This document shows, one piece after another, positions 29,132 through 41,950 of a stretch of DNA of 64,000 bases. The stretch's first letter is position 1. Each line of letters starts with the position of its first letter. Source of the DNA: Leptolyngbyaceae cyanobacterium (GTDB lineage Bacteria; Cyanobacteriota; Cyanobacteriia; Phormidesmidales; Phormidesmidaceae); NCBI GenBank assembly GCA_965263355.1, contig CBDHHL010000049.1, positions 96,001 through 160,000 on the forward strand. The letters are read 5' to 3'. A program made the position numbers and the translations under genes. A model generated the notes under the pieces. The model worked only from the letters and a program-made list of their open reading frames with translations, made no database searches and was not told the DNA's origin.

Positions 29132-32100
29132 CTAGGCTTGAAGCTTTTGCAACAGACTAGCAATGTTCTTACGGACTACCGATTCAGACGATACATCTCC
29201 TAAAGCACCATAAATATCAGCAGCCTGTCGGTAGAAGTTCACCGCCTCTTCCGGCTGATCTAGGTTGTTATTGTAAAGATTGCCCAACCCATTTAAGTTC
29301 TTAGCCTGGCCTGCCAAATTGTTGGTCTCGACCGCAATATTCAAGGAGTGAAGGTAGGCGACTTCCGCGTTGTCATAATTGCCTGCATTTTTTTGCACCT
29401 CACCGATTTGGTACCAGATACCAGCTACTAATAAGGGTGAATCCTGCTGTTCAAATAGGGAGCGGGCATCTTGATAGAGTGCGATCGCATCACCATAATT
29501 TTCCTGGGAAATTCTAATCGCAGCCAGGTTAGCTTTAGCAACCGCCACTCCCCGCACATTGTTGAGTTTTTCACTCCAGGTGATGTACTCTACACATTTT
29601 TGGGCTGCCTCATCCAACTGACCCAACAGCTGAAAACAGTTTGCTTGTTCATGGAGTACTACAGACATAGCTACGGGGGCCATACCGCCTTTCCGATTCC
29701 CCAACGACTCGAATAATCGCTGGGCTTTTGCTAAAAACTCAAGTGCCAAAGCCAATTGATCAGACGCTTTCAGAACCTGTCCCATCAAGCTGTAGGCCAT
29801 GGCCAGATCATAGTCCACCTCACGATAAGCCCCTGCTCCCACTGCCTTAGCATTTTCTAAAAGCCGCTGAGCCTTTTCGTAGGCCAATTGCCATTGCTCC
29901 TGCTCCAACAGTTGCTCAATCAAATATCGCTCACGGTTAAACTGGGTATGCCCCCACTCCGATGGCAATGTTACCGCTGGGGTGGGCAAGTTTACCGAAG
30001 TACTACCCTTGCTAGGATAACCAATGGGAGACTTTATCCACAGCGGTTGGGCTGTTTCATGGGCTGGTTTCCGTCGCTGTTGCTCTTGTTGTGGCGACTG
30101 TTGTTGTGGCTGGTTAAATCGCCCATTTTGTTCCTCCATCGGCAATGTCACAGCCTGTTCCGAAATCCTATCCGCAGATTTTACGACGGCCCCTTGGGAA
30201 CGATAAATTAACAAATAAGCGGACGGGATAAAATATAAGGCCAACAGGGTTGCCCCCCCCAGCCCCCCAGCGATCGAAATCGCCAACGGCGGCCAAAACC
30301 CAGTACTATCAAATAATAAAGGCGTAAATCCAATAATCGTTGTAACCGTAGTCGCCACCACATGGCGGGTGGACTTAACCACGACCTGTTGGATCGCAGC
30401 CGCATCCCCCTGGCGAGCTAAGGGATGCTCTCGCAAAGCGGCTAAGACCACAATGGAGTCGTTAATGGCTAGGCCAATCAATCCCAGGGTGCCAAGAATA
30501 GCCGTAAAGCCAAACAATGAATTAAATACCCACAACGCCATTGCAGCCAGACCGACTGCGGCCAAGGCCACCACAAACAGTAGCCCAGCTAAGGCAAATG
30601 AGTTAAACGACAACACCAGGGTGGCGGTCATTAATACCACTAAAATGCCCACGGTGGATAACAAGTTGCCCACGGCGGACCCTCGGGCATCGGCTTCACC
30701 GCCATAGCTAAGGCGATACCCCAACGGCAACTCAAATCCTTGATCGTCGAGAGCTTGCTGAAACTCAGCTAAGACGATACTGGGCAGCGACCCCGCCGTA
30801 ATAAAGGCCTGGACCGTATTCACCCGTTCTCCATCTTGTCGTGCGATCGCACTCTGGTCTGGACGCAAGTTAACCGACGCCACAGCCGAAAAGGGAACCG
30901 TTGTGCCATCGGCACTGATCAGATCAATGGACGTAATACTGGCCAGGTCGCCCCGCTCATATTCCGGTAGCTGCACACGCACCGGAATATCTTCCGTATC
31001 TTCCAGAATTGATCCTCCTAGCTGACCATCTAGAAGGATACTGAGTTGAGATGCGATCTCACTATTACTCAACCCCACCCGTTGAGCCGCTGCTTCATCC
31101 ACCTCCAACGCCAGTTTTGGAGATAATTCCGTTAATGTGGAGCGCGTATTAGTAACCTCATCCAATTGAGATAAAATCAGCTGCAACTGATTTCCTAATG
31201 CCCTTAACTCTTCTAGATTAGGACCGTAAATACTAACCTCAATGGGAGCATCCACCGGAGGTCCCTGCTCCAGCTGCTTTACCAGGATTTGCGCATCAGG
31301 AAAAGCCGCATCCAATTCCGTTTGTAGCGTTTGAATGGTGCCACTGAGATCATCCGTTGACGATAACTGCACAATTCCCTGGGCATATTCAGAAGCATTG
31401 CGCAGAGTACCCACCACATTGTAGAAAAATGACGGCGCGGTTTCACCTAAAAACCAATGAATATCTTCAACCGCCGGATGCTGCCGAATCAACTTACGCA
31501 TGGCCAAGGTTTGGGTGCGGGTGGCTGCAATCGAGCTAGAGGCCTGTCGCTGTAGCTCGATTTGAAACTGATCACGGTTGGTCGGCGGAAAAAATTGTTG
31601 TGGCAAACTACCAAACTGAACAAACCCCACCACCGGCAACACCATGGCAATCACTACACCCAGGATAGGTCGACGAAAAACGTCCCTCAAACTGTCTTCA
31701 TAGAGACGAGAGAGCCATTCATTGGTCCAGCCAGTCACTAGCCAATGTGGTGGTTCAGCCCCTGACTGAGAAGCCCCTGATTGAGTCCCCGATTGAGCCT
31801 CTAATGGCCGCCAGCGATACATCAGACCGGCAAACGCTGCAATGATCGTCAACGATAAGGTCAGCGAACTCACCAGGGCTAAAATCACCGTACTGCCAAT
31901 GGTGCCAATAAACTCCCCTGTTCCTCCTGGCGACGTAGCAATCGGCACAAATGCCAATACAGTGGTCAGGGTGGATGCCAACAGGGGGACCGTCAAATGC
32001 CTGACCGTATGACTCACCGCTTCAGCCGGATGAACGCCATTTTGCAAATGCACCCGCACTTCATCTACGACCACAATGGCATTGTCAATTAATAATCCCA

Positions 32101-33286
32101 GGGCAATAATCAATCCCGTCACCGACATTTGATGTAGGGGAATGCCCAACATCTTCATGCTGCCAAATACCATCATTGTAGAAAGCGGTAACGCCATACC
32201 TACAATCAATGCCGACCGCCACCCTAGCACCACCAATGAGATACCGATAACTAAAACAGAACTCAATAAAAGATTGCCAATGACACCATTCAGACGCTGC
32301 TGCACATATTGACTTTGATCGAGAACCACGCTGATGCCCAAGCCATCTGACAGATTGGCTCCAAAGTTCTCGATCACCTTTCTGGCCTGTTGGGCCCATT
32401 GATCCACACGGTAGTCAGACTCCACTGTTGCGGCTACCACTATCGCTGGCTTTCCTTCCACCAGAGCCAGGTCAGATACCGGCGTTCGCACCCCCTTACG
32501 CACCTGGGCAATATCTCCTAACTGGGCAATCTGACCCGCTCCACCCACTCGAATCGGAATTTCCCTGATTCGATCTAATGAATCTAGCGCACTATCTACT
32601 TCCAGTAACAGTTCAGTGGACCCACTGCGCAACTCTCCTGTGGAAATTTTTGCATCACTGGCGGCGATCTGTTGCGACAGCTGTTGAGCACTGATTCCTA
32701 ATCGCAACAAGTCCGCCTGACTAATCTCCACCTGAATTTCTTCGTCCGGCTCCCCAAACAGCTCCACACTGTCTGTCCCCGGTAAATTCCGCAGATCTGT
32801 CTCTAGCCCTTCTATCACTCGCCGTAAAATAGTATAGTTAACCGGCTCATCCAGCTCCCAGGTCAATCCCACAATCATGGCACTGGCCTTAACTTTGATA
32901 TCCTCATACTCTGGGCGACTAGCACCAACAGGCAGCTGTGGAATCACATCATCAATCTGACTACGCACCTTTGCCCACACGGGGTCAATATTAGTAACGG
33001 TCTCTTTGATTTCTACCGTCACGGATGACACCCCCGGACTGGAAAACGAGATAATCTCCTCTACTTCCTCAATGCTGGACAGCTCTTCCTCCAGTCTGTC
33101 AGTTACCAGGGACTCAATCCGTTCAGCACTGGCCCCCGGAAAAATTGTAGTAATGGTTGAGAACCGCTGTGCAATCTCAGGATCCTCCAGCCGCGGCAAC
33201 GTAAAAAATGAGGATACCCCCCAGACAACAACCAGTGTCAGTGTCAAAAATAAAAGCTGTCGATTCCGAAAGAAAAGATTGAACAT
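29132..33286 (-). CDS. RND (AcrB/AcrD/AcrF family) permease with a C-terminal TPR domain fused in frame
   Basis: LPRLEDP, IDNAIVVVD, FFPPTNR and FWPPLA motifs, then a Q/P-rich linker and about 270 aa of TPR-like repeats. Start chosen at MFNLFFRN (matches the paralogue); ORF track extends to 33385. Confidence 0.88.
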   Translation of the reverse strand: MFNLFFRNRQLLFLTLTLVVVWGVSSFFTLPRLEDPEIAQRFSTITTIFPGASAERIESLVTDRLEEELSSIEEVEEIISFSSPGVSSVTVEIKETVTNIDPVWAKVRSQIDDVIPQLPVGASRPEYEDIKVKASAMIVGLTWELDEPVNYTILRRVIEGLETDLRNLPGTDSVELFGEPDEEIQVEISQADLLRLGISAQQLSQQIAASDAKISTGELRSGSTELLLEVDSALDSLDRIREIPIRVGGAGQIAQLGDIAQVRKGVRTPVSDLALVEGKPAIVVAATVESDYRVDQWAQQARKVIENFGANLSDGLGISVVLDQSQYVQQRLNGVIGNLLLSSVLVIGISLVVLGWRSALIVGMALPLSTMMVFGSMKMLGIPLHQMSVTGLIIALGLLIDNAIVVVDEVRVHLQNGVHPAEAVSHTVRHLTVPLLASTLTTVLAFVPIATSPGGTGEFIGTIGSTVILALVSSLTLSLTIIAAFAGLMYRWRPLEAQSGTQSGASQSGAEPPHWLVTGWTNEWLSRLYEDSLRDVFRRPILGVVIAMVLPVVGFVQFGSLPQQFFPPTNRDQFQIELQRQASSSIAATRTQTLAMRKLIRQHPAVEDIHWFLGETAPSFFYNVVGTLRNASEYAQGIVQLSSTDDLSGTIQTLQTELDAAFPDAQILVKQLEQGPPVDAPIEVSIYGPNLEELRALGNQLQLILSQLDEVTNTRSTLTELSPKLALEVDEAAAQRVGLSNSEIASQLSILLDGQLGGSILEDTEDIPVRVQLPEYERGDLASITSIDLISADGTTVPFSAVASVNLRPDQSAIARQDGERVNTVQAFITAGSLPSIVLAEFQQALDDQGFELPLGYRLSYGGEADARGSAVGNLLSTVGILVVLMTATLVLSFNSFALAGLLFVVALAAVGLAAMALWVFNSLFGFTAILGTLGLIGLAINDSIVVLAALREHPLARQGDAAAIQQVVVKSTRHVVATTVTTIIGFTPLLFDSTGFWPPLAISIAGGLGGATLLALYFIPSAYLLIYRSQGAVVKSADRISEQAVTLPMEEQNGRFNQPQQQSPQQEQQRRKPAHETAQPLWIKSPIGYPSKGSTSVNLPTPAVTLPSEWGHTQFNRERYLIEQLLEQEQWQLAYEKAQRLLENAKAVGAGAYREVDYDLAMAYSLMGQVLKASDQLALALEFLAKAQRLFESLGNRKGGMAPVAMSVVLHEQANCFQLLGQLDEAAQKCVEYITWSEKLNNVRGVAVAKANLAAIRISQENYGDAIALYQDARSLFEQQDSPLLVAGIWYQIGEVQKNAGNYDNAEVAYLHSLNIAVETNNLAGQAKNLNGLGNLYNNNLDQPEEAVNFYRQAADIYGALGDVSSESVVRKNIASLLQKLQA

Positions 33287-33341
33287 AGTCTGAGATGGGT
33301 AACGGAGGGGGGAGGTGGTGTGGACAATTGTCCGAGTATTT

Positions 33342-34634
33342 CTAATTTTGAACAAGCTGTCCTGGCACAAGCCGATGGGTGCCACTTGTGATCACCTTCT
33401 CCTCTGGCTGTAATAGTCCCCTGACAAACGCTCTATCACCTTCGGTGTAAAGCACCTCTACTTCTCGACGGCTCACTTCATAGAGATTTTCAGCTGACTT
33501 ACCGATGGGGGCGTTTAACACATAGGCTGACCATAGTCCCCTTTCACCCGCAACCAGAGCACTGGTGGGGAGCCAGTAGCCAATTTCTTCCTGTTGATCC
33601 TGCAATGTTAGTCGGGCCGTAGCTCCAATGGTGGGCTGAGCTTCCGGTGGTAATGTCATCACCACGGTCACCGTTTGGCTGTCATCATCCAGTTCTGGCA
33701 GCAGGGATGTCACGTTTCCCCTAAACGATTGCCCATTCACGTCAATCGACTGCGGACTACCCAGGGTAATCCGACTGGCCATGGAACTCGGCACACCGAT
33801 ACGCGCCTCCAGAGCATCTCCTTCTACCAGGCGCATAACGGGTTGCCCTGGACTGACCACTACTCCCTCATCCACCAGTCGCAGTGACACTCGCCCATCA
33901 AAAGGAGCGTAAATAATGCTTTTTGCTATCGACACATCCAGATTTTTTAGACTGGCGTCGATTTGATCAATCTGAGCATCCTGGGCACTTACTTGTTCAA
34001 TACGGGTCCCAGCATTAAGTTCGTTTAACTGACTCTGGGCCTGATTTAGACGCGCCTCTAGGGCATCGGCATTAAATACAGCTGAATCTTTCTCCTCTAG
34101 GGAAATGGCACCTTGGGTATAGAGATTTTCGCGCCGTTCCTGCTGTAGACGGGCCAACGCAAGCTGGGCTTTCAAGTCTTGAACGGCAGCAGCGGCAGCA
34201 GCAATATCTTCCTGGCGTGGCCCCCGCTGTAATTCCTGAAAAATTGCCTGGGCCTGACGCTGTTGGGCCTCAAACTGCTGTCGCTGGGCTTGCAAACTGC
34301 GAGTATCTAACTGAGCAAGGGGGGTGCCCGCTACCACCCGATCTCCTTCATCCACAAACACATCCACCAAGGTACCCGCTTGTTCAAAGCCCAGATCACT
34401 ACTGCGACGAGCAACAATTTCTCCGGTAAAGGTGCGCTTTACTTGATAGTCAGTAACTTGCTCTAGGACCTGGGTTTGGACGGATAATGACGCCACCACA
34501 TCCTCAGTTACCGCCGAATTAGATCGAATTCGCCACACCCAAAAGGCAGGTGCTGCCAGCAACAGTAGCAATAACAGCCATCGCCAGTTAATGCTTCGAA
34601 CACCGTTAGTGTTATTAGACATTGATGAAACCAT
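33342..34634 (-). CDS. RND periplasmic adaptor (membrane fusion protein)
   Basis: N-terminal TM helix, lipoyl half-motif VDEGDRV, coiled-coil hairpin, APFDG, GTHRLVPGQ. Confidence 0.9.
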   Translation of the reverse strand: MVSSMSNNTNGVRSINWRWLLLLLLLAAPAFWVWRIRSNSAVTEDVVASLSVQTQVLEQVTDYQVKRTFTGEIVARRSSDLGFEQAGTLVDVFVDEGDRVVAGTPLAQLDTRSLQAQRQQFEAQQRQAQAIFQELQRGPRQEDIAAAAAAVQDLKAQLALARLQQERRENLYTQGAISLEEKDSAVFNADALEARLNQAQSQLNELNAGTRIEQVSAQDAQIDQIDASLKNLDVSIAKSIIYAPFDGRVSLRLVDEGVVVSPGQPVMRLVEGDALEARIGVPSSMASRITLGSPQSIDVNGQSFRGNVTSLLPELDDDSQTVTVVMTLPPEAQPTIGATARLTLQDQQEEIGYWLPTSALVAGERGLWSAYVLNAPIGKSAENLYEVSRREVEVLYTEGDRAFVRGLLQPEEKVITSGTHRLVPGQLVQN

Positions 34635-35495: not shown

Positions 35496-35877
35496 CATAC
35501 CTTTAGATTAAACTTAAGACCTTTTCAGATAGAGAAAAACCGTATGTGTCTAACTAAATACCACATAATCTAACCTAATCTTATTTACCTAAATTTAGGC
35601 CAAATAACGGGCACGATGCTCAAGCCCGAATCGCTGACCGTATTGCCAAAATAGGAAAGGTGATGGACGCTTGAAAAAAAAACATCATTTTCAAGGTGCA
35701 TCACAATGGATACCTTACAGTCTACCTCCCGTCTTGCCGTCCGCCAACGAGTTAGACCGTCACTATTCGGCAGGGCATAGCCAGGTGTTGTTGGACCCTC
35801 TACAGATAAGAAAAAAGGGATAGGATAATAGGCCTATGGTTAACCTAAGCCAGGGAGTCGCCTCCCCGACTCGGCTT

Positions 35878-38296
35878 GTCGGGTAAGGGAGAATAAGTCG
35901 CCTTATCACCCTCCCCTCAGAACCGGACGTGGCACTTACATGCCATCCGGCTCAAGCCTTCTGCGATTCAGATGGTTATGTCCCATGTGTAGGTGCTGAT
36001 GACAAACTTTGTGGAGGTGGAGCAGGTTTTCAACTTTGTCCGTCCCTCCATCTGCCACGTTGAGAATATGGTGGGTATGCAGTTGCTCTCCGTTGAACAG
36101 GTGTTCTTTACATACCGGACATTGCCAATTTTGGTTCTCAGCCACTTGGTAGTGTTTCGAGCCTTTGGCCCAGTAAGTTTTACCTTGCCGAGTTTGACGC
36201 TGTTGCCAGTATGTTTTGAGCTTAGGGTCATCTGGTGAAGCCTTGCCAATCACTTTGACATGGCGTTCGATGGGGATGGTTGCCAATTGAGTCAGAGAGT
36301 AGTTGATGACTCGACCGTCTCGGCTTATGGCCGGAGCAGTAAAGTACCATTTCTTTCCCCGAATCGTTTTGAAGTATTGGTTCACAACCCATCGTTTCCC
36401 TTTTCTGGGATGCCTTCTCCTGCACCATTTGAAGATGGCCTGCCAGATGTAATGGTCGAGGGAAGAGAAGACCCTGGCACTATTGACATGCCTGTAGTAA
36501 TTGGCCCATCCTCTGAGAATTGGATTGAGGTGTTCGATGACAACCTCTGGCTTATGCGAGGGATTGGCTCTGAGCCAGTCTCTGATTCGCTGGAGGAAGT
36601 CGTTCACCTTCTGTTTCGCCGGGGTGATCAGGCATTTGCCCTTGAATTGTCTGACATTAAATCCGAGGAAGTCGAAGCCCTGTTCGATATGAACAATTTT
36701 CGTCTTTTCTAGGTTGAATGTCAGTCCCCTTTGCTTTAGCCAGTCCTCTAGGATCGGTTTGATAGCTTCAATGTCTTCCTTAGAAGGCGCGGTCACGATG
36801 ATGTCATCCGCATAGCGGATAAATCCATACTTATTGCTCCGTACGCGTTTGGTTTGATATCTCCCTGTTTTCTGGTTGAAATTGTGATATTCCTTTACCT
36901 TTTTGAATTGAGATAAAAGTTCTTCTATTCCATCCAGTGCGATATTCGCTAGTACAGGTGAGATAATTCCACCCTGCGCAGTTCCGCTTTCTGTCGGATG
37001 AAACACTTCTGCTTCAATATACCCTGCTTTCAGCCATTGTTTGATTAGTTCTCTGCCAGGGATTAGTCCGATAGCGTTGAGGATATAATCGTGGCTGATA
37101 TTGTCAAATGCGCCTTTTATATCGGCATCTAAAGCCCAAGTATCGACTCCTTTTCTCAGTCGATGATGACATTGTTTTATGGCATCTTGACAACTGCGAC
37201 CAGGGCGAAAACCGTAGCTATGAGCCTCAAATCGAGCTTCCCAGCTGGGTTCGAGCGCATTTTTCACAATTGCTTGTGCGATTCGATTTTTGATTGTAGG
37301 AATGCTTAATGGACGACGTTTCTTGCCGTTATCCTTGGGGATATAGACCCTTCGAGCAGGGTGAACTTTCCATAAGCAGTAAGCCTGCATCTCATTAACC
37401 AGATTGACCCTTGCCTGAGGGGTCAGGGCTACCTGGCCATCAATGCCAGCTGTCTTTTTCCCTCGATTTTGCTGGGTCACTCGTCGCACTGCTAGCAGTA
37501 AGTTAGAGTAACTGCGAAGCATCAGTTTCATCAGGCTTCTCACCCGATTCCATTGATGTTCCTGAGTCGCACGATAAATCCGCAGTCTTAGATTTCGTAC
37601 CTTCTTCTTGACGCGTTTCCAATTGATGGAAGCCCATTCTTGAAGACGGCCCACCGCTCCGATGTCTGAGTTGACTCTATCTTTCACGTTGGCTCGATTT
37701 CTTTACGTTAGTTTATCGTTGAAGACCTGTTGAAAGTCAGCTACCTTTTCGGTATCGGGTAAAGTTTGAGCCCGTATCTCCCGCATTACCAGGAGCGTTC
37801 GCTTTTTCCAACCTCCCTTACCCTCTAGGTAATTGTGTCGTCCTTGCGGTTGACCTACTCTGGTTATCGACCTTTGCCAGAGAACCTATAGGGCTTACCG
37901 TGTTCCGTGCGTTTGACCTACGACTGAATTAGGTTCCATCTATACCCCGGTGGGACTGTTGTCCTTTCGCTTTGAGCGTTCTGAAACTCATCGCCTACCC
38001 ACTTACCATTTTGGTTAAGGTGTGTCAGCCTGATTTCACCTTTCACGCATCACGAGGCTTAGGATGATTCACTTGCGTTAACCCGTTTCAGTCTTCCCTT
38101 TGCTCTCCATATCAACTTGGGCTGTCAATATCGTGAGCTTTCGTGCTTTGCTTCCCGCCAGTTTCATTACTTACTCCTGGCGTAAGCAGAGTCGGTGACT
38201 CTTTTACGTAGGGACAGAGAGAAAGGCTCCTCTGGGGAAGTCGGCTTCCCAATCAAATGCGCCACTGGCGCTGAACGCACGACTTTCACGTCGCAC
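35878..38296 (-). mobile_element. Inner, apparently intact group II intron (2419 nt)
   Basis: 5' GTGCGACGTGAAAGTCG; DV GAGCCGGATGGCATGTAAGTGCCACGTCCGGTTC (35953-35920); DVI ending TTACCCGAC; full-length RT ORF. Confidence 0.93.
35936..37687 (-). CDS. ltrA: Group II intron reverse transcriptase/maturase with HNH endonuclease
   Basis: TAGIDG, RPLSIP, YGFRPGR, DIKGAFD, QGGIISP, RYADD, GFDFLG; X domain LRGWANYY; CPVC..HH..GG..NL.LH..CH. Confidence 0.95.
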   Translation of the reverse strand: MKDRVNSDIGAVGRLQEWASINWKRVKKKVRNLRLRIYRATQEHQWNRVRSLMKLMLRSYSNLLLAVRRVTQQNRGKKTAGIDGQVALTPQARVNLVNEMQAYCLWKVHPARRVYIPKDNGKKRRPLSIPTIKNRIAQAIVKNALEPSWEARFEAHSYGFRPGRSCQDAIKQCHHRLRKGVDTWALDADIKGAFDNISHDYILNAIGLIPGRELIKQWLKAGYIEAEVFHPTESGTAQGGIISPVLANIALDGIEELLSQFKKVKEYHNFNQKTGRYQTKRVRSNKYGFIRYADDIIVTAPSKEDIEAIKPILEDWLKQRGLTFNLEKTKIVHIEQGFDFLGFNVRQFKGKCLITPAKQKVNDFLQRIRDWLRANPSHKPEVVIEHLNPILRGWANYYRHVNSARVFSSLDHYIWQAIFKWCRRRHPRKGKRWVVNQYFKTIRGKKWYFTAPAISRDGRVINYSLTQLATIPIERHVKVIGKASPDDPKLKTYWQQRQTRQGKTYWAKGSKHYQVAENQNWQCPVCKEHLFNGEQLHTHHILNVADGGTDKVENLLHLHKVCHQHLHMGHNHLNRRRLEPDGM

Positions 38297-38339
38297 CAGA
38301 ACCGTACGTGAGACTTTCGACCTCATACGGCTCCTCTCT

Positions 38340-39196
38340 AACCGGGCTCTTGTCATAAGTACCAGTCATCGACGGAGTGTTTGCTGAGTGTACCTGGTCA
38401 TGGCAGTGACGATGCAGCAACGCCAGGTTTTGACATCGGTGCCTAAGCGTTTGATATGACGTTCGAGTCCTTGGAGCGCAATCAGCGCGAGGAGGGGTGA
38501 GACGACTCCCCCCTGCGGACTTCCTCGTTCAGTGCGATGAAAGCCATTGTCGAGAACACCACATTTGAGCCAGCCTTTGATAAGCCTTTTCATCCAGGTT
38601 GGCGTTCGACTTTTCTTCAAGATGGCGTCATGGGAGATGTTATCAAAGCAGCCTCGAATATCAACGCTCAGCACGTATTTTGGCTGGCGGAAGATTGTTC
38701 GATAAACAGCTTCAATCGTATCTTGACAAGACCGTCCTGGTCGAAACCCATACATATTGGGGTCTAGCTTAGCTTCCCATTGGGGTTCTAGCGCTAGTTT
38801 GATGAGAGCCTGAGTGGCTCTATCCCGCATGACCGGAATCGAAAGCGGACGCTTTTCTGTTTTCCCTGGCTTGGGAATCCAGATACGGCGCAGGGGGCGG
38901 GGATTAGAGAAGTCTCCTAAGGTTTGAGCCATCTCTAACCGCTGGGGTGGCGGCAAATTCTTGATGCCATCGATACCAGCGGTACGCCTCCCTTTGTTAT
39001 CCTGGGTCACTCGCCTGACGGCCAGTAACCTCGCATACCAGGACTTTGCTAACAGACGTTGCAGTTTGTGAACCAACTTCACTTGACGACGACGACTGGC
39101 TTTGTAAATTCGACGTTGGAGCTTAAAGACCTTGACCTGGATTCGTTTCCAGGGCAGTGTCTCCCATCTATACCTCGTCTGAAGTGACGGGCTCAT
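38340..39196 (-). pseudogene. Group II intron RT with a large internal deletion (RT0-RT4 joined out of frame to the end of the HNH domain)
   Basis: Motifs present through QGGVVSP, but no YADD and no X domain; an alternative frame from about 38429 downward reads NLALLHRHCHDQVH. Confidence 0.88.
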
Positions 39197-39766
39197 AACG
39201 TGTGCACTCTACTAAACGGCTTTACATCCCAGTTACAGTGTGTACGTCAGCGTATCTTGGGCATTACCCCAAGCGTTGGCTTCTTACACAATCCCAATCC
39301 TTCATCTCATTTGGTTAGCACCTACTCTCGGTATCGACCTGAGCCGAGAGAGACATGAAGGGTTCCTACGTTCCGATATCCGATAATCGCTATACTTAGG
39401 GCTCCACTCTAGACCGGGTTTATTGAGGGTAGTTCTTGGTCACCGGGGTCATGCCAAGCTCATATCCTTAGCCTTTTGGCCGTGGTGTATCAGCCTGATT
39501 TCACCACTTCACGATAACGATCCGTTAACATGGATTCCTTGCGTACCCGTATATAGCTTGCTAGACGGGATTCCAGCTTAGGCTGCCAGTTACCGCCGTT
39601 TATTCCCGCTTCAGGCGTTGATGGCTAGTCGCGAACCTGGGGAATAGGCTGCCACTCCACTACCGGGAGGGAGGGACTTTCATCCTCATCGAGATATCAG
39701 TTATCAAGGTTCTATCCTTGTCTCCCATCCCCCAGACTGAGCTGGTTTCGGAAGAACGCATCACAC

Positions 39767-39796
39767 GCCCCGACTCGTGCGAAACTGGGCCACAAG
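39767..39796. repeat. Inner 30 bp of a Tn3-type terminal inverted repeat (outer 8 bp at 35831-35838)
   Basis: Joining the intron flanks gives the 38-mer GGCCTATGGCCCCGACTCGTGCGAAACTGGGCCACAAG, with CGAAA at positions 22-26 and a terminal AAG as in Tn3 IRs; it lies just downstream of tnpA. Confidence 0.65.
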
Positions 39797-39877
39797 GCTA
39801 AAATCCTTACCTAGAAAAGGTTACAGGGCTCAAAATCAAGCGGCCTCAGAAAAAGTACTAACTGACAGACATTCGGT

Positions 39878-40296
39878 TTATGAATCTGCCTGGTTTTCGA
39901 CATCAAGCCCCGTCATGAAGGGCAAGTCATAAAAGATAGGTGGAGGCTGCCGATTGACATCCAGATTGTATTGTTCCAACCGGATAACATGCTTGGTAAT
40001 GTAGGGATTTAACCCAGGGATTGCCTCTGGATCGATCTGATATCCCTCTTGTGTCAACTCATGGAGGATTCGACTCATCTCAAATACGTTGTAGAGAATC
40101 AAACAGTTGGCAACAAGATGATTATACTTGATGAGCTTCCGCTGTTCCTCACGATTGTTGGTTCTTAAAATTCCTTCACCCCCAAAGGCAAGCCATTGAA
40201 CAAAGGCATGAACGACTCGCTTTTGTTCGTGGCTCCTTGAATGGTAGAGCGCAGCTTGACGTCATGGATATACTGCATCAGAAAGCCCATTCTGAC
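39878..40296 (-). pseudogene. tnpA: Tn3-family transposase C-terminal fragment (frameshifted, truncated by IS66)
   Basis: VRMGFLMQYIHDVKLRSTIQGATNKSESF, then a 1-nt frameshift, then AFVQWLAFGGEG..EEQRKLIKYNHLVANCLILYN..LNPYITKH. Confidence 0.85.
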
Positions 40297-41950
40297 GTAG
40301 CTGTCTATTTCTCCGTCAGGAGAGATGCTGAGAGGCAGTATAATAAAGAAGCCCCCAACCCCGATAATTTATTGGATTCAAGGTTAGCGTTAGATGCCTT
40401 CAGATGCTCTGACCCTACTCATCACTCAGCTCGGACTACGTCTCGAAGAACAAGGACGTCAGCTTCAGTGTCAGGCAGAGCAGCTCGAAGAGCAACGCAC
40501 TCAAATTAAGGAGCAAGCAGACCGGATAAAGGAGTTAGAGACTGAGAATAGTCGTTTGAAAGACCTTTTGAAGCAGCAAGGGGATTCCAAGGGGTCAAAA
40601 GCCCCGAAATTCAACGAGAACTATAGTGTCGATACGCATCAGGGTAATAAAAAAAGCAAACGATGACGTCAAGCGACAGGACGACGTTCTCATCAAAGCA
40701 AGTTATCGTTAATCGATGTTTACCAGGACGTGTATGAGCCAGGGGTGGATGCATCAGAGTGCATCGAACGGGGTCACCAGTATGTGTGGCGAATTATTGA
40801 TGGGAAGGCGACCTATGTGTGCTATCGGTTATTTGCTCGTCCGCAGACTCAGGAGTTACCAACCATTACCGGAGTTCGCAATCGCCTGAGTGAATACGGT
40901 ATCGAGATTATTGTGACAGTGGCGTTCTTGCACTATTGGGTGGGGATATCGTTGGATAATAGCTGTGGAGTGATTGGCTTCTTTACCGGATTAGTGTTGT
41001 CCAAGTCGCAAGCCAATTCCTTGCTTGAGCAATTGAGTCGTGACTGGCAAGCCCAATACGATACGATAGCGGAGTTACTGGCCCATCAATTGGTGCTCTA
41101 CATTGACGAGACCGGGTGGAAAGTGGGCAATGGGAGTTGTTACACTTGGGTGTTTTCAACGACAATGCATGTGTTGTTCCGATGTGGTGTAAGTCGGGGC
41201 AAAGCAGAAGCTCAGGCCGTGGTCGGAGAGCAGTTTTCTGGCATTGGGGTGAGTGATGATTATGGAGTGTACCAATCGTTATTCACCGAACACCAATTGT
41301 GTTGGGCACATCTACTGCGTAAAACAATTAAGTTGATGCTTCAGCATCCAGAGCAGACCGCATACAAGCCCTTTTTGGACAGTCTTTATCGAATTTATCA
41401 ACAGGCCGTTCGTTGGCAAAAGGACCAACGCTTAAGCTCAGGACGTGCCGACAAAGTTAAGCAGTTACAACACCGTATTCGCAAATTATGTTGTGAGGCA
41501 GGTACTCCCATTGACAAGGAGACGATGGACACTGATCAGCAGACTTTTATTCGGTTACAAAATGAATTGATCAATGGACTTGAGTCCTTATTTGTATTTG
41601 TGATTCATCCGGACGTGGAATCCACCAACAATCGTAGTGAACGGAATATCCGACGGGAGGCTGAAGTCAGAAAAGGGGGACGGACCAGTAAAACCCCACA
41701 AGGGGCAAAACGTCGAGGTATTATTATGACGGTATTAGCTACCTTGAATACTCGATTCGAGCACTTTACCCTCAACCTCCTGTTAACTGAAATTAACCGA
41801 TGGATAGAGGACGGACAATCTCTGTTTCAGTCTGAATTGGATAATATCTATCAGGCTCAGCCTCCACCCATTGCTTAATCTCTTAAACCAACGCTAATTA
41901 CCTTGGTCTCTCTGTAGAGGCAACAGTTAGTGGTTTAAATAGACACTTAC
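40297..41950 (+). mobile_element. IS66-family insertion sequence (single-ORF, ISBst12-like)
   Basis: Terminal IRs GTAGCTGTCTATTT (40297-40310) and AAATAGACACTTAC (41937-41950); no target-site duplication seen. Confidence 0.85.
40394..41878 (+). pseudogene. IS66 transposase with one in-frame TGA at 40664-40666
   Basis: N-terminal coiled coil; DETGW, SDDYGVY, QLCWAHLLR and TNNRSERNIR motifs; the 40394 and 40730 ORFs are in the same frame. Confidence 0.88.

Follow-up and report, generated by a model that had tools for sequence, protein, structure and literature searches.

A twintron from a Leptolyngbyaceae cyanobacterium and a group II intron lineage that appears to home into the domain V/domain VI linker of other introns

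We analyzed a stretch of 64,000 nucleotides (nt) from a Leptolyngbyaceae cyanobacterium (GenBank assembly GCA_965263355.1, contig CBDHHL010000049.1, positions 96,001 to 160,000), hereafter the window, whose minus strand carries a group II intron nested within another group II intron (a twintron). An inner intron of 2419 nt (38296..35878) splits an outer intron (39766..35839) at a point 2 nt past the last base pair of outer domain V (DV), with UG (38298..38297) in between. We conclude that the twintron very probably arose by retrohoming, and that the inner element is an intron, probably of type IIB, whose recognition loops are tuned to the 3' strand of DV and the first two linker nucleotides between DV and domain VI (DVI) of other introns. 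The observations behind this reading are the anatomy of the locus, the base pairings and their covariation, the recurrence of related introns at the same junction in diverged hosts, and purifying selection on the inner protein.

Anatomy of the twintron and recognition of its target

Group II introns choose their targets by pairing between exon-binding sites (EBS) in the intron and intron-binding sites (IBS) in the flanking DNA. The parts of the twintron, including the reverse transcriptase (RT) open reading frames (ORFs), are as follows, with J5/6 denoting the DV-DVI linker and DI to DIV the remaining intron domains.

35839..39766, minus strand: outer group II intron, interrupted and degenerate, with 5' end GTGTGATGCGTT.., relatives of its DI-DIII, a DV and a DVI
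38366..39196, minus strand: truncated outer RT ORF of 276 aa, from RT0 to about RT4 (Pfam RVT_N 2.2e-32, RVT_1 5.2e-26)
38299..38333, minus strand: outer DV (Rfam RF00029, 47 bits; DV-only model RF04357, 50.8 bits)
38297..38310, minus strand: 5' target site, comprising IBS2a (38310), IBS2 (38309..38305) and IBS1 (38302..38297), which pair with the inner EBS2a, EBS2 and EBS1
35878..38296, minus strand: inner group II intron, intact, 2419 nt, from GTGCG at 38296 to ..CCCGAC at 35878
38044..38049, minus strand: EBS2 TGCGT (38049..38045) and EBS2a G (38044), pairing with -13..-9 and C-14
37978..37983, minus strand: EBS1 CAGAAC, in the 8-nt loop of the hairpin GAGT-TTCAGAAC-GCTC (37989..37974)
37942, minus strand: candidate EBS3, a U at inner position 355, which would pair with the +1 A (35877)
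35936..37687, minus strand: inner intron-encoded protein (IEP), 583 aa, an open frame without stop, with Pfam domains and YADD present
35878..35955, minus strand: inner DV and DVI (RF00029, 54.3 bits, full model)
35839..35877, minus strand: last J5/6 nucleotide (A 35877, IBS3) and outer DVI ending in GGTTAAC, folding with bulged A 35846

The inner element appears to be a complete intron encoding an RT, a maturase and an HNH nuclease. Its protein matches RVT_N (2.8e-31), RVT_1 (2.4e-43, positions 1-205 of 205), GIIM (5.7e-26) and HNH (6.3e-07), all above the Pfam cut-offs, and the RT, maturase (X) and endonuclease (En) domains are all found. This protein evolves under purifying selection, with dN/dS of 0.10-0.11 at dS of 0.39-0.44 in comparisons with the relatives that we label L001 and L095. 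The intron termini, GTGCG and ..GAC, follow the rule of a GUGYG start and an AY end and recur in L001, L003 and L095; full or partial copies in L001, L002 and L003 are 92%, 91% and 77% identical to it in nucleotide sequence. The hints of type IIB are comparative, the Rfam models for DI-DIV being silent: IBS2a is located at -14, and the first 19 nt are common to 63 other metagenomic introns. Assignment to IIB2, for which two stem-loops near the 5' end had been considered, was dropped, as the B2-type 5' consensus belongs to the outer intron.

RF00029, the Rfam model of DV and DVI (gathering score 40), is passed twice within the window. One match is the inner DV and DVI, in which both the model and the fold show the AGC triad and the DVI bulged A. 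The other (38335..38265, 47.0 bits) consists of the outer DV followed by a spurious "DVI" that is in fact the 5' end of the inner intron. The outer intron has every part expected of the host in a twintron. Its 5' end can be placed by alignment of the first 21 nt with five related cyanobacterial introns, which begin with GTGCGATTCGTT.., and sequences 66-76% identical to its DI-DIII part in nucleotides occur in 15 of 401 sampled cyanobacterial genomes; an IEP remnant, a DV and a DVI are retained as well. The outer DV folds as a canonical hairpin with a 2-nt bulge, and the outer DVI hairpin has a single bulged A (35846) located 8 nt before the ..AAC end. When the two outer halves were folded jointly, they formed the DV hairpin, a 3-nt linker (UG/A, where the slash here and below marks the insertion point) and DVI; thus, removal of the inner intron restores a canonical structure. 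The linker is also 3 nt long (TTA or TGA) in uninterrupted relatives. An earlier note, made from the letters of this DNA alone, had placed these landmarks on the minus strand, and its positions for the outer DV end, GTGCG (38296), CCCGAC (35878), GGTTAAC (35839) and both EBS elements were all correct; the covariance models and folds that it proposed as a check agree with the nested arrangement, RF00029 passing for the outer DV and for the inner DV and DVI and the joint fold being canonical.

The same note had proposed that CAGAAC in the 37989-37974 hairpin recognizes GTTCTG at the end of the 5' flank. This pairing (-6..-1) comprises six of six positions, all Watson-Crick, and its IBS1 consists of the last 4 nt of the outer DV and the first 2 nt of J5/6. 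We compared the homologous loop with the last six flanking nucleotides in 14 related introns and found full six-base pairing in 10, against 16 of 170 mismatched intron/flank combinations; the CAGAAC/GTTCTG pairing is therefore more than chance. The loop also behaves as EBS1 in out-group introns, where it pairs with their own unrelated flanks (in L084, CACACG faces CGTGTG), which removes the concern that CAGAAC might lie outside the EBS1 loop. Within the lineage the two partners covary: CAGAAC faces GTTCTG or GTTTTG, and in L003 TTGAAC faces GTTTGA.

For EBS2, the note had paired TGCGTG with positions -14..-9. The site holds, but the interaction is better read as five base pairs between TGCGT and -13..-9 (5/5, one of them G-U), with the remaining G acting as EBS2a opposite C-14. 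This agrees with the IIB layout of a 5-bp EBS2-IBS2 helix and an IBS2a at -14 given in the accessible part of PMC8643678, whose supplement, to the same extent, lists no DV-like IBS strings. In L001 a G:C pair of the EBS2 helix is replaced by U:A, a compensatory change. The candidate EBS3 was found by searching all alignment columns for covariation with the +1 nucleotide; position 355 scored best, with 9 of 12 combinations Watson-Crick and two more G-U. Two variable columns picked by eye had been rejected before it, since neither paired with +1.

How common suitable targets are can be gauged from the DV contexts that our pattern-based detector found in all retrieved loci, a biased sample in which 28 of 102 fit EBS1 at all six positions; 14 of these 28 also fit EBS2 at no fewer than four of five positions and have a +1 A. 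The DV end of the inner intron itself is among the fitting contexts, and self-invasion is therefore possible.

Recurrence of the lineage at the DV/DVI junction

We collected relatives by scanning one genome per species for a peptide pattern, which gave 80 loci, and by scanning metagenome contigs for the exact 19-base 5' end. Among the 80 loci, only L001 (92% amino acid identity), L002 (91%) and L003 (76%) have RTs close to the inner one. The metagenome scan returned 64 matches, of which L095 alone belongs to the lineage, as judged by its next 11 bases; the flanks of the remaining 63, inspected by eye, are unrelated, and these introns represent other lineages. The lineage as analyzed here thus consists of five members, the window copy (included in all counts), L001, L002, L003 and L095.

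All members occupy the same position. In the four with a readable 5' flank (window, L001, L003 and L095), the intron starts 2 nt past the last DV pair; in all five, whose 3' flanks are readable, a DVI-like hairpin follows; and none of the five is at any other type of site. The hosts differ, however. The DV upper stems differ among all four 5' flanks, and between the window and L001 the inner RTs are 92% identical whereas the host RTs are 55% identical, with host DNA alignable over only 170 nt at 68%. A quick maximum-likelihood analysis of 43 RTs grouped the inner RTs in one clade with support of 100 and the host RTs in a separate clade with support of 99. On these sequence comparisons, the insertions into host introns are independent, and related inner introns occupy the same conserved motif of diverged host introns, the pattern expected of an intron-homing lineage. 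The earlier proposal of precise insertion by an intron specialized on other introns is upheld by these flanks.

More distant relatives are found elsewhere. L084 (69% nucleotide identity) lies at an unrelated, non-intron site, and a rough DV detector found a DV followed by an intron start at none of the 77 distant RT loci, with the exception of L077, where the hairpin was judged by eye to be a DVI. Tabulation of 5' flanks, which the note had suggested as a discriminating check, therefore separates lineage members, all at DV ends, from distant RT homologues, which are not; DV/DVI homing is accordingly a trait of this lineage. Since all close relatives that we found occupy the same spot in other introns, the lineage appears to live as a parasite of introns.

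Several copies bear further marks. L003 is a 3.2-kb contig of a metagenome-assembled genome labeled Puniceicoccaceae, of another phylum, which could reflect mis-binning or horizontal transfer. The copies in L002 (3700-4004) and L154 (3640-3990, minus strand) are cut at the 5' side by unrelated DNA resembling insertion sequences (IS); that in L002 contains an opposite-strand reading frame resembling a transposase or helix-turn-helix protein. L154, which has the nearest RT outside the clade, proved uninformative as to site, with its 5' third replaced by unrelated DNA and a 3' flank that is not clearly a DVI.

We also mapped contigs of four public sequencing runs to positions 35700..39900, counting covered parts only; those of runs X1, X3 and X4 could derive from DNA or from RNA. 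In run X1, a 2422-nt contig corresponds exactly to 35877..38298 at a depth of 51, compared with 20-31 in the flanks, and in run X3 there are two 150-nt variants of 37592..37741 with depths of 19 and 19.7. These are weak hints of two inner-intron copies in one organism. Loose contig ends in X1 have another DV 3' strand ahead of the intron's first nucleotides and the start of another DVI behind its last ones, which suggest that the second copy occupies a different host intron in this organism. In one X3 contig, 35877 is joined directly to 38297, with exactly 2419 nt omitted. Together with the low dN/dS and the apparent second copy, this contig is an indirect sign that the inner intron may splice and retrohome. 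In run X4, which comes from another organism, a DV 3' strand passes straight into an outer-type DVI. The contigs of an RNA run, X22, were all short and differed from the locus at many positions; they presumably come from other organisms.

Proposed mechanism and alternative explanations

If the inner intron behaves like the IIB introns that have been studied, its excised lariat would, together with the protein, reverse-splice into the top DNA strand after ..GGUUCUG. Recognition would involve EBS1/IBS1 (6 bp), EBS2/IBS2 (5 bp), EBS2a/IBS2a and probably EBS3/IBS3, after which, as in the En-dependent target-primed reverse transcription pathway, HNH would nick the opposite strand and the RT would copy the intron. 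A DV target would be non-essential to the host cell, and because no other part of group II ribozymes is as conserved in sequence, many introns would offer a landing site. The insertion puts 2.4 kb between the catalytic and the branch-point hairpins, so a live host intron would plausibly need the inner intron out before it could splice, as the earlier note had supposed for this locus.

Several points weigh against this account or limit it. The sample is small, comprising five sequences and the hints from read contigs, and because the host DVIs of the window, L002 and L095 are similar, the number of host lineages that are clearly distinct is only about three. Decay is evident in the L003 copy, which has YCDD in place of YADD and a stop codon within its reading frame. 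Three of the four members pair imperfectly at IBS2 (4/5 in both L001 and L095, while L003 requires a bulge), and L001 is mismatched at the candidate EBS3. As to intron class, the Rfam group-II-D1D4 models gave no match to the inner intron at E values up to 0.1. The DV detector was a rough pattern of our own making with a folding filter, through which the distant loci were screened as a set. The exact-skip joint is a single contig with only 20 nt on one side, and the loose ends are single contigs of 9 and 17 nt.

The similar DVIs of the window, L002 and L095 could also mean that outer and inner introns move or descend as one composite, their common position recording one ancient insertion, and composite mobility of twintrons was raised as a possibility by Mohr et al. 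(PMC2882425). Yet it is the same window/L001 pair that combines 92% identical inner RTs with 55% identical host RTs, the host DNA can hardly be aligned, each of the four 5' flanks has its own DV upper stem, and read contigs hint that this organism has a second, almost identical copy next to another DV; we consider a composite very improbable. An even fainter prospect, in our judgment, is a one-off ectopic retrotransposition into a look-alike of a normal, non-intron site with no specialization on introns. Group II introns are known to retrotranspose to ectopic sites, and L084, at 69% identity, does sit at a non-intron site, but a chance event of this kind is hard to square with a lineage none of whose five known members was found at another type of site, with an EBS1 pairing that is perfect where ectopic sites usually pair worse, and with covariation between EBS1 and the DV-end variants.

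Specialized retrohoming into DV/DVI linkers thus stands as our explanation, and a separate matter is what it means at this particular locus. The specialization may be real and the locus itself a graveyard, in which the outer intron is dead, no sequential splicing takes place, no gene is affected and the insertion site was simply a safe landing pad. The outer intron indeed looks defunct, because its RT frame stops after about RT4 and it is flanked by non-coding DNA next to an IS66 transposase and a fragment of a Tn3-type transposase; the truncated RT, together with the lack of coding exons, means that it may not splice at all. Its RT matches only positions 1-143 of 205 of the RVT_1 profile, is without YADD, maturase and En/nuclease parts, and is 45% identical to the inner RT, and its IBS1/EBS1 match is imperfect, as far as can be judged by eye. 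On the other side, the outer intron has kept a canonical fold of its DV and DVI, including the AGC triad and the bulged A, ORF-less introns can splice in trans via related proteins (accessible part of PMC2882425), and one contig joins both outer halves exactly, though this could be DNA. We regard the case for a graveyard as evenly balanced. If the outer copy is only a dead landing pad, as its state would imply, the dependence of host splicing on the inner intron may be moot here.

The surroundings of the twintron are those of a mobile-element patch (window positions 39878-41878), with a C-terminal Tn3-family transposase fragment of 74 aa that falls slightly short of the Pfam cut-off (E 3.5e-05) and, on the plus strand, a transposase of the IS66 family (E 3.6e-33). 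The 3' end of the outer intron (35839..35877) and the 3' flank of the L002 copy share 91% identity over 35 nt. Positions 29132-34634 on the minus strand, described as upstream, hold a 1417-aa ORF overlapping a 430-aa ORF; by eye, these resemble an RND-type efflux pump, whose C-terminal tail is long and rich in repeats, and the membrane-fusion partner of such a pump.

Relatives at other sites, known twintrons and significance

Relatives with 64-70% nucleotide identity occur in 18 of 401 cyanobacterial genomes, and many appear to lie inside other introns at other conserved motifs. The motifs seen in the flanks of these relatives are RT0 (..G/KKTAGIDG), RT2 (CFD./I.HD), RYADD, the DV GNRA loop, the DV/DVI linker and a site about 63 nt into DI. 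These assignments come from inspection of the flanks by eye and from RT ORFs of the host clade that adjoin the inner introns. They raise the prospect, as likely to be wrong as right, of a two-clade host-parasite system, of which the window may show one branch. In it, a protein-coding IIB clade would live mainly inside introns of another clade, characterized by a GUGCGAUUC-type 5' end, and would have radiated as its EBS1 and EBS2 were retuned to one conserved host motif after another.

The individual sites are as follows. L152, whose 5' start lies near 1399 of the reversed locus, interrupts RT0 of another intron's RT (..AVRRVTQDNRG/KKTAGIDG..), and the 3' flank of L159 translates to KKTAGVDG.., again the RT0 motif; both are about 68-69% identical in nucleotide sequence. 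L153 (G255:C172) is flanked by ..DISKCFDR/INHDALL.., the RT2 motif, and L176 (G255:C279) has the 5' flank ..RYADDMV/, the RT active site, where the accessible part of PMC2504315 places B.th.I3 and M.a.I5 as well. L161 and L175 (G315:C95) and L165 and L177 (G399:C18) appear to lie inside the DV GNRA tetraloop (GAA/A), because the 3' half of a DV directly follows each of them and GAGCCGTGTGAGGTGAA precedes L161; L167 shows a DV of this type without an insertion. The first nucleotides of L161 seem to be GCGCG, where GUGCG would be expected. L156 (G277:C1) and L157 (G005:C132) share one homing site, ..GACTAGCC[AC]T/CAATC..; in L156 a GTGTGA resembling another intron's 5' end precedes this site by about 63 nt, and the L157 copy is followed by a host-clade RT ORF. 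Most of the 63 other introns with the 19-base start (within L088-L151) belong to another lineage with a fixed, conserved coding site, whose flanks end in ..GGnCTGGAyCAnTAyGArGT[GA]; L117 has an extra copy of the intron's first 14 nt immediately before the intron.

A full-text search of openly readable papers found no description of a lineage targeting the DV/DVI linker. The nearest case by position is the Euglena gracilis psbF twintron (Copertino and Hallick, 1991), in which an internal intron reportedly interrupts domain V of the external intron and splits its catalytic end; it is said to be a single, ORF-less organellar case and not a lineage shown to target the site repeatedly. The accessible parts of PMC8919778, PMC12584367 and PMC5572947 contain nothing on homing into this linker, and the following comparisons draw on the cited papers to the same partial extent.

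The closest likeness in behavior is to B.th.I3, M.a.I5, UA.I3 and P.l.I2, which insert at the RYADD motif in the RT genes of other introns (Tourasse and Kolsto, 2008, PMC2504315): there too, IBS1 and IBS2 fall on a highly conserved motif of other retroelements, and twintrons form repeatedly in different hosts. Compared by description, those introns have a protein-coding target and no En, whereas here the target is the DV 3' strand with J5/6 and an HNH domain is present. In Thermosynechococcus elongatus, TeI3 (F3) lies inside DIV of TeI4 (F1) (Mohr et al., 2010, PMC2882425). These are likewise cyanobacterial IIB introns using one conserved site of another family, the inner copies near-identical and the outer ones diverged, but they insert in DIV, where the first and second ATGs of the IEP ORF border the site, and the inner intron has no ORF, in contrast to insertion at DV/DVI by an intron with its own protein. 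The nested introns of Methanosarcina acetivorans, up to five deep (Dai and Zimmerly, 2003, via the review PMC4424553), are likewise products of repeated site-specific homing into other group II introns and likewise lack surrounding coding exons; in PMC4424553 and PMC2504315 the target named for M.a.I5 is the RT catalytic motif, and deep nesting is not seen in the present locus. In Trichodesmium erythraeum, a twintron interrupts a conserved gene, with its inner intron in host domain I and sequential splicing shown (Pfreundt and Hess, 2015, PMC4649490). That system is also cyanobacterial and has a B2-type host with a GUGCGAUUC-like 5' end, as does our outer intron, but its inner intron is in DI and inside a gene rather than at DV/DVI. 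Other twintrons involve DIV in Porphyridium (PMC4476101) and DIV and DI in plant mitochondria (PMC7049729).

What appears to be new here is the target site, the DV/DVI linker, and not the behavior, since introns homing into introns are already known. Among published lineages are some that aim at the codons of the RT active site; the lineage described here appears to aim at the catalytic heart of the ribozyme. Because group II targets are chosen by base pairing, an intron could in principle specialize on any conserved sequence, and with this target any intron having a standard DV end is a potential host. As the insertion splits the host's catalytic hairpin from its branch-point hairpin, splicing of the host would depend on that of the guest. 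The pairing rules are explicit, which makes the idea directly testable by a standard E. coli mobility assay. Such introns would provide a natural system for hyperparasitism among selfish RNAs, for the spread of introns in non-essential DNA and, possibly, for the control of one ribozyme by another.

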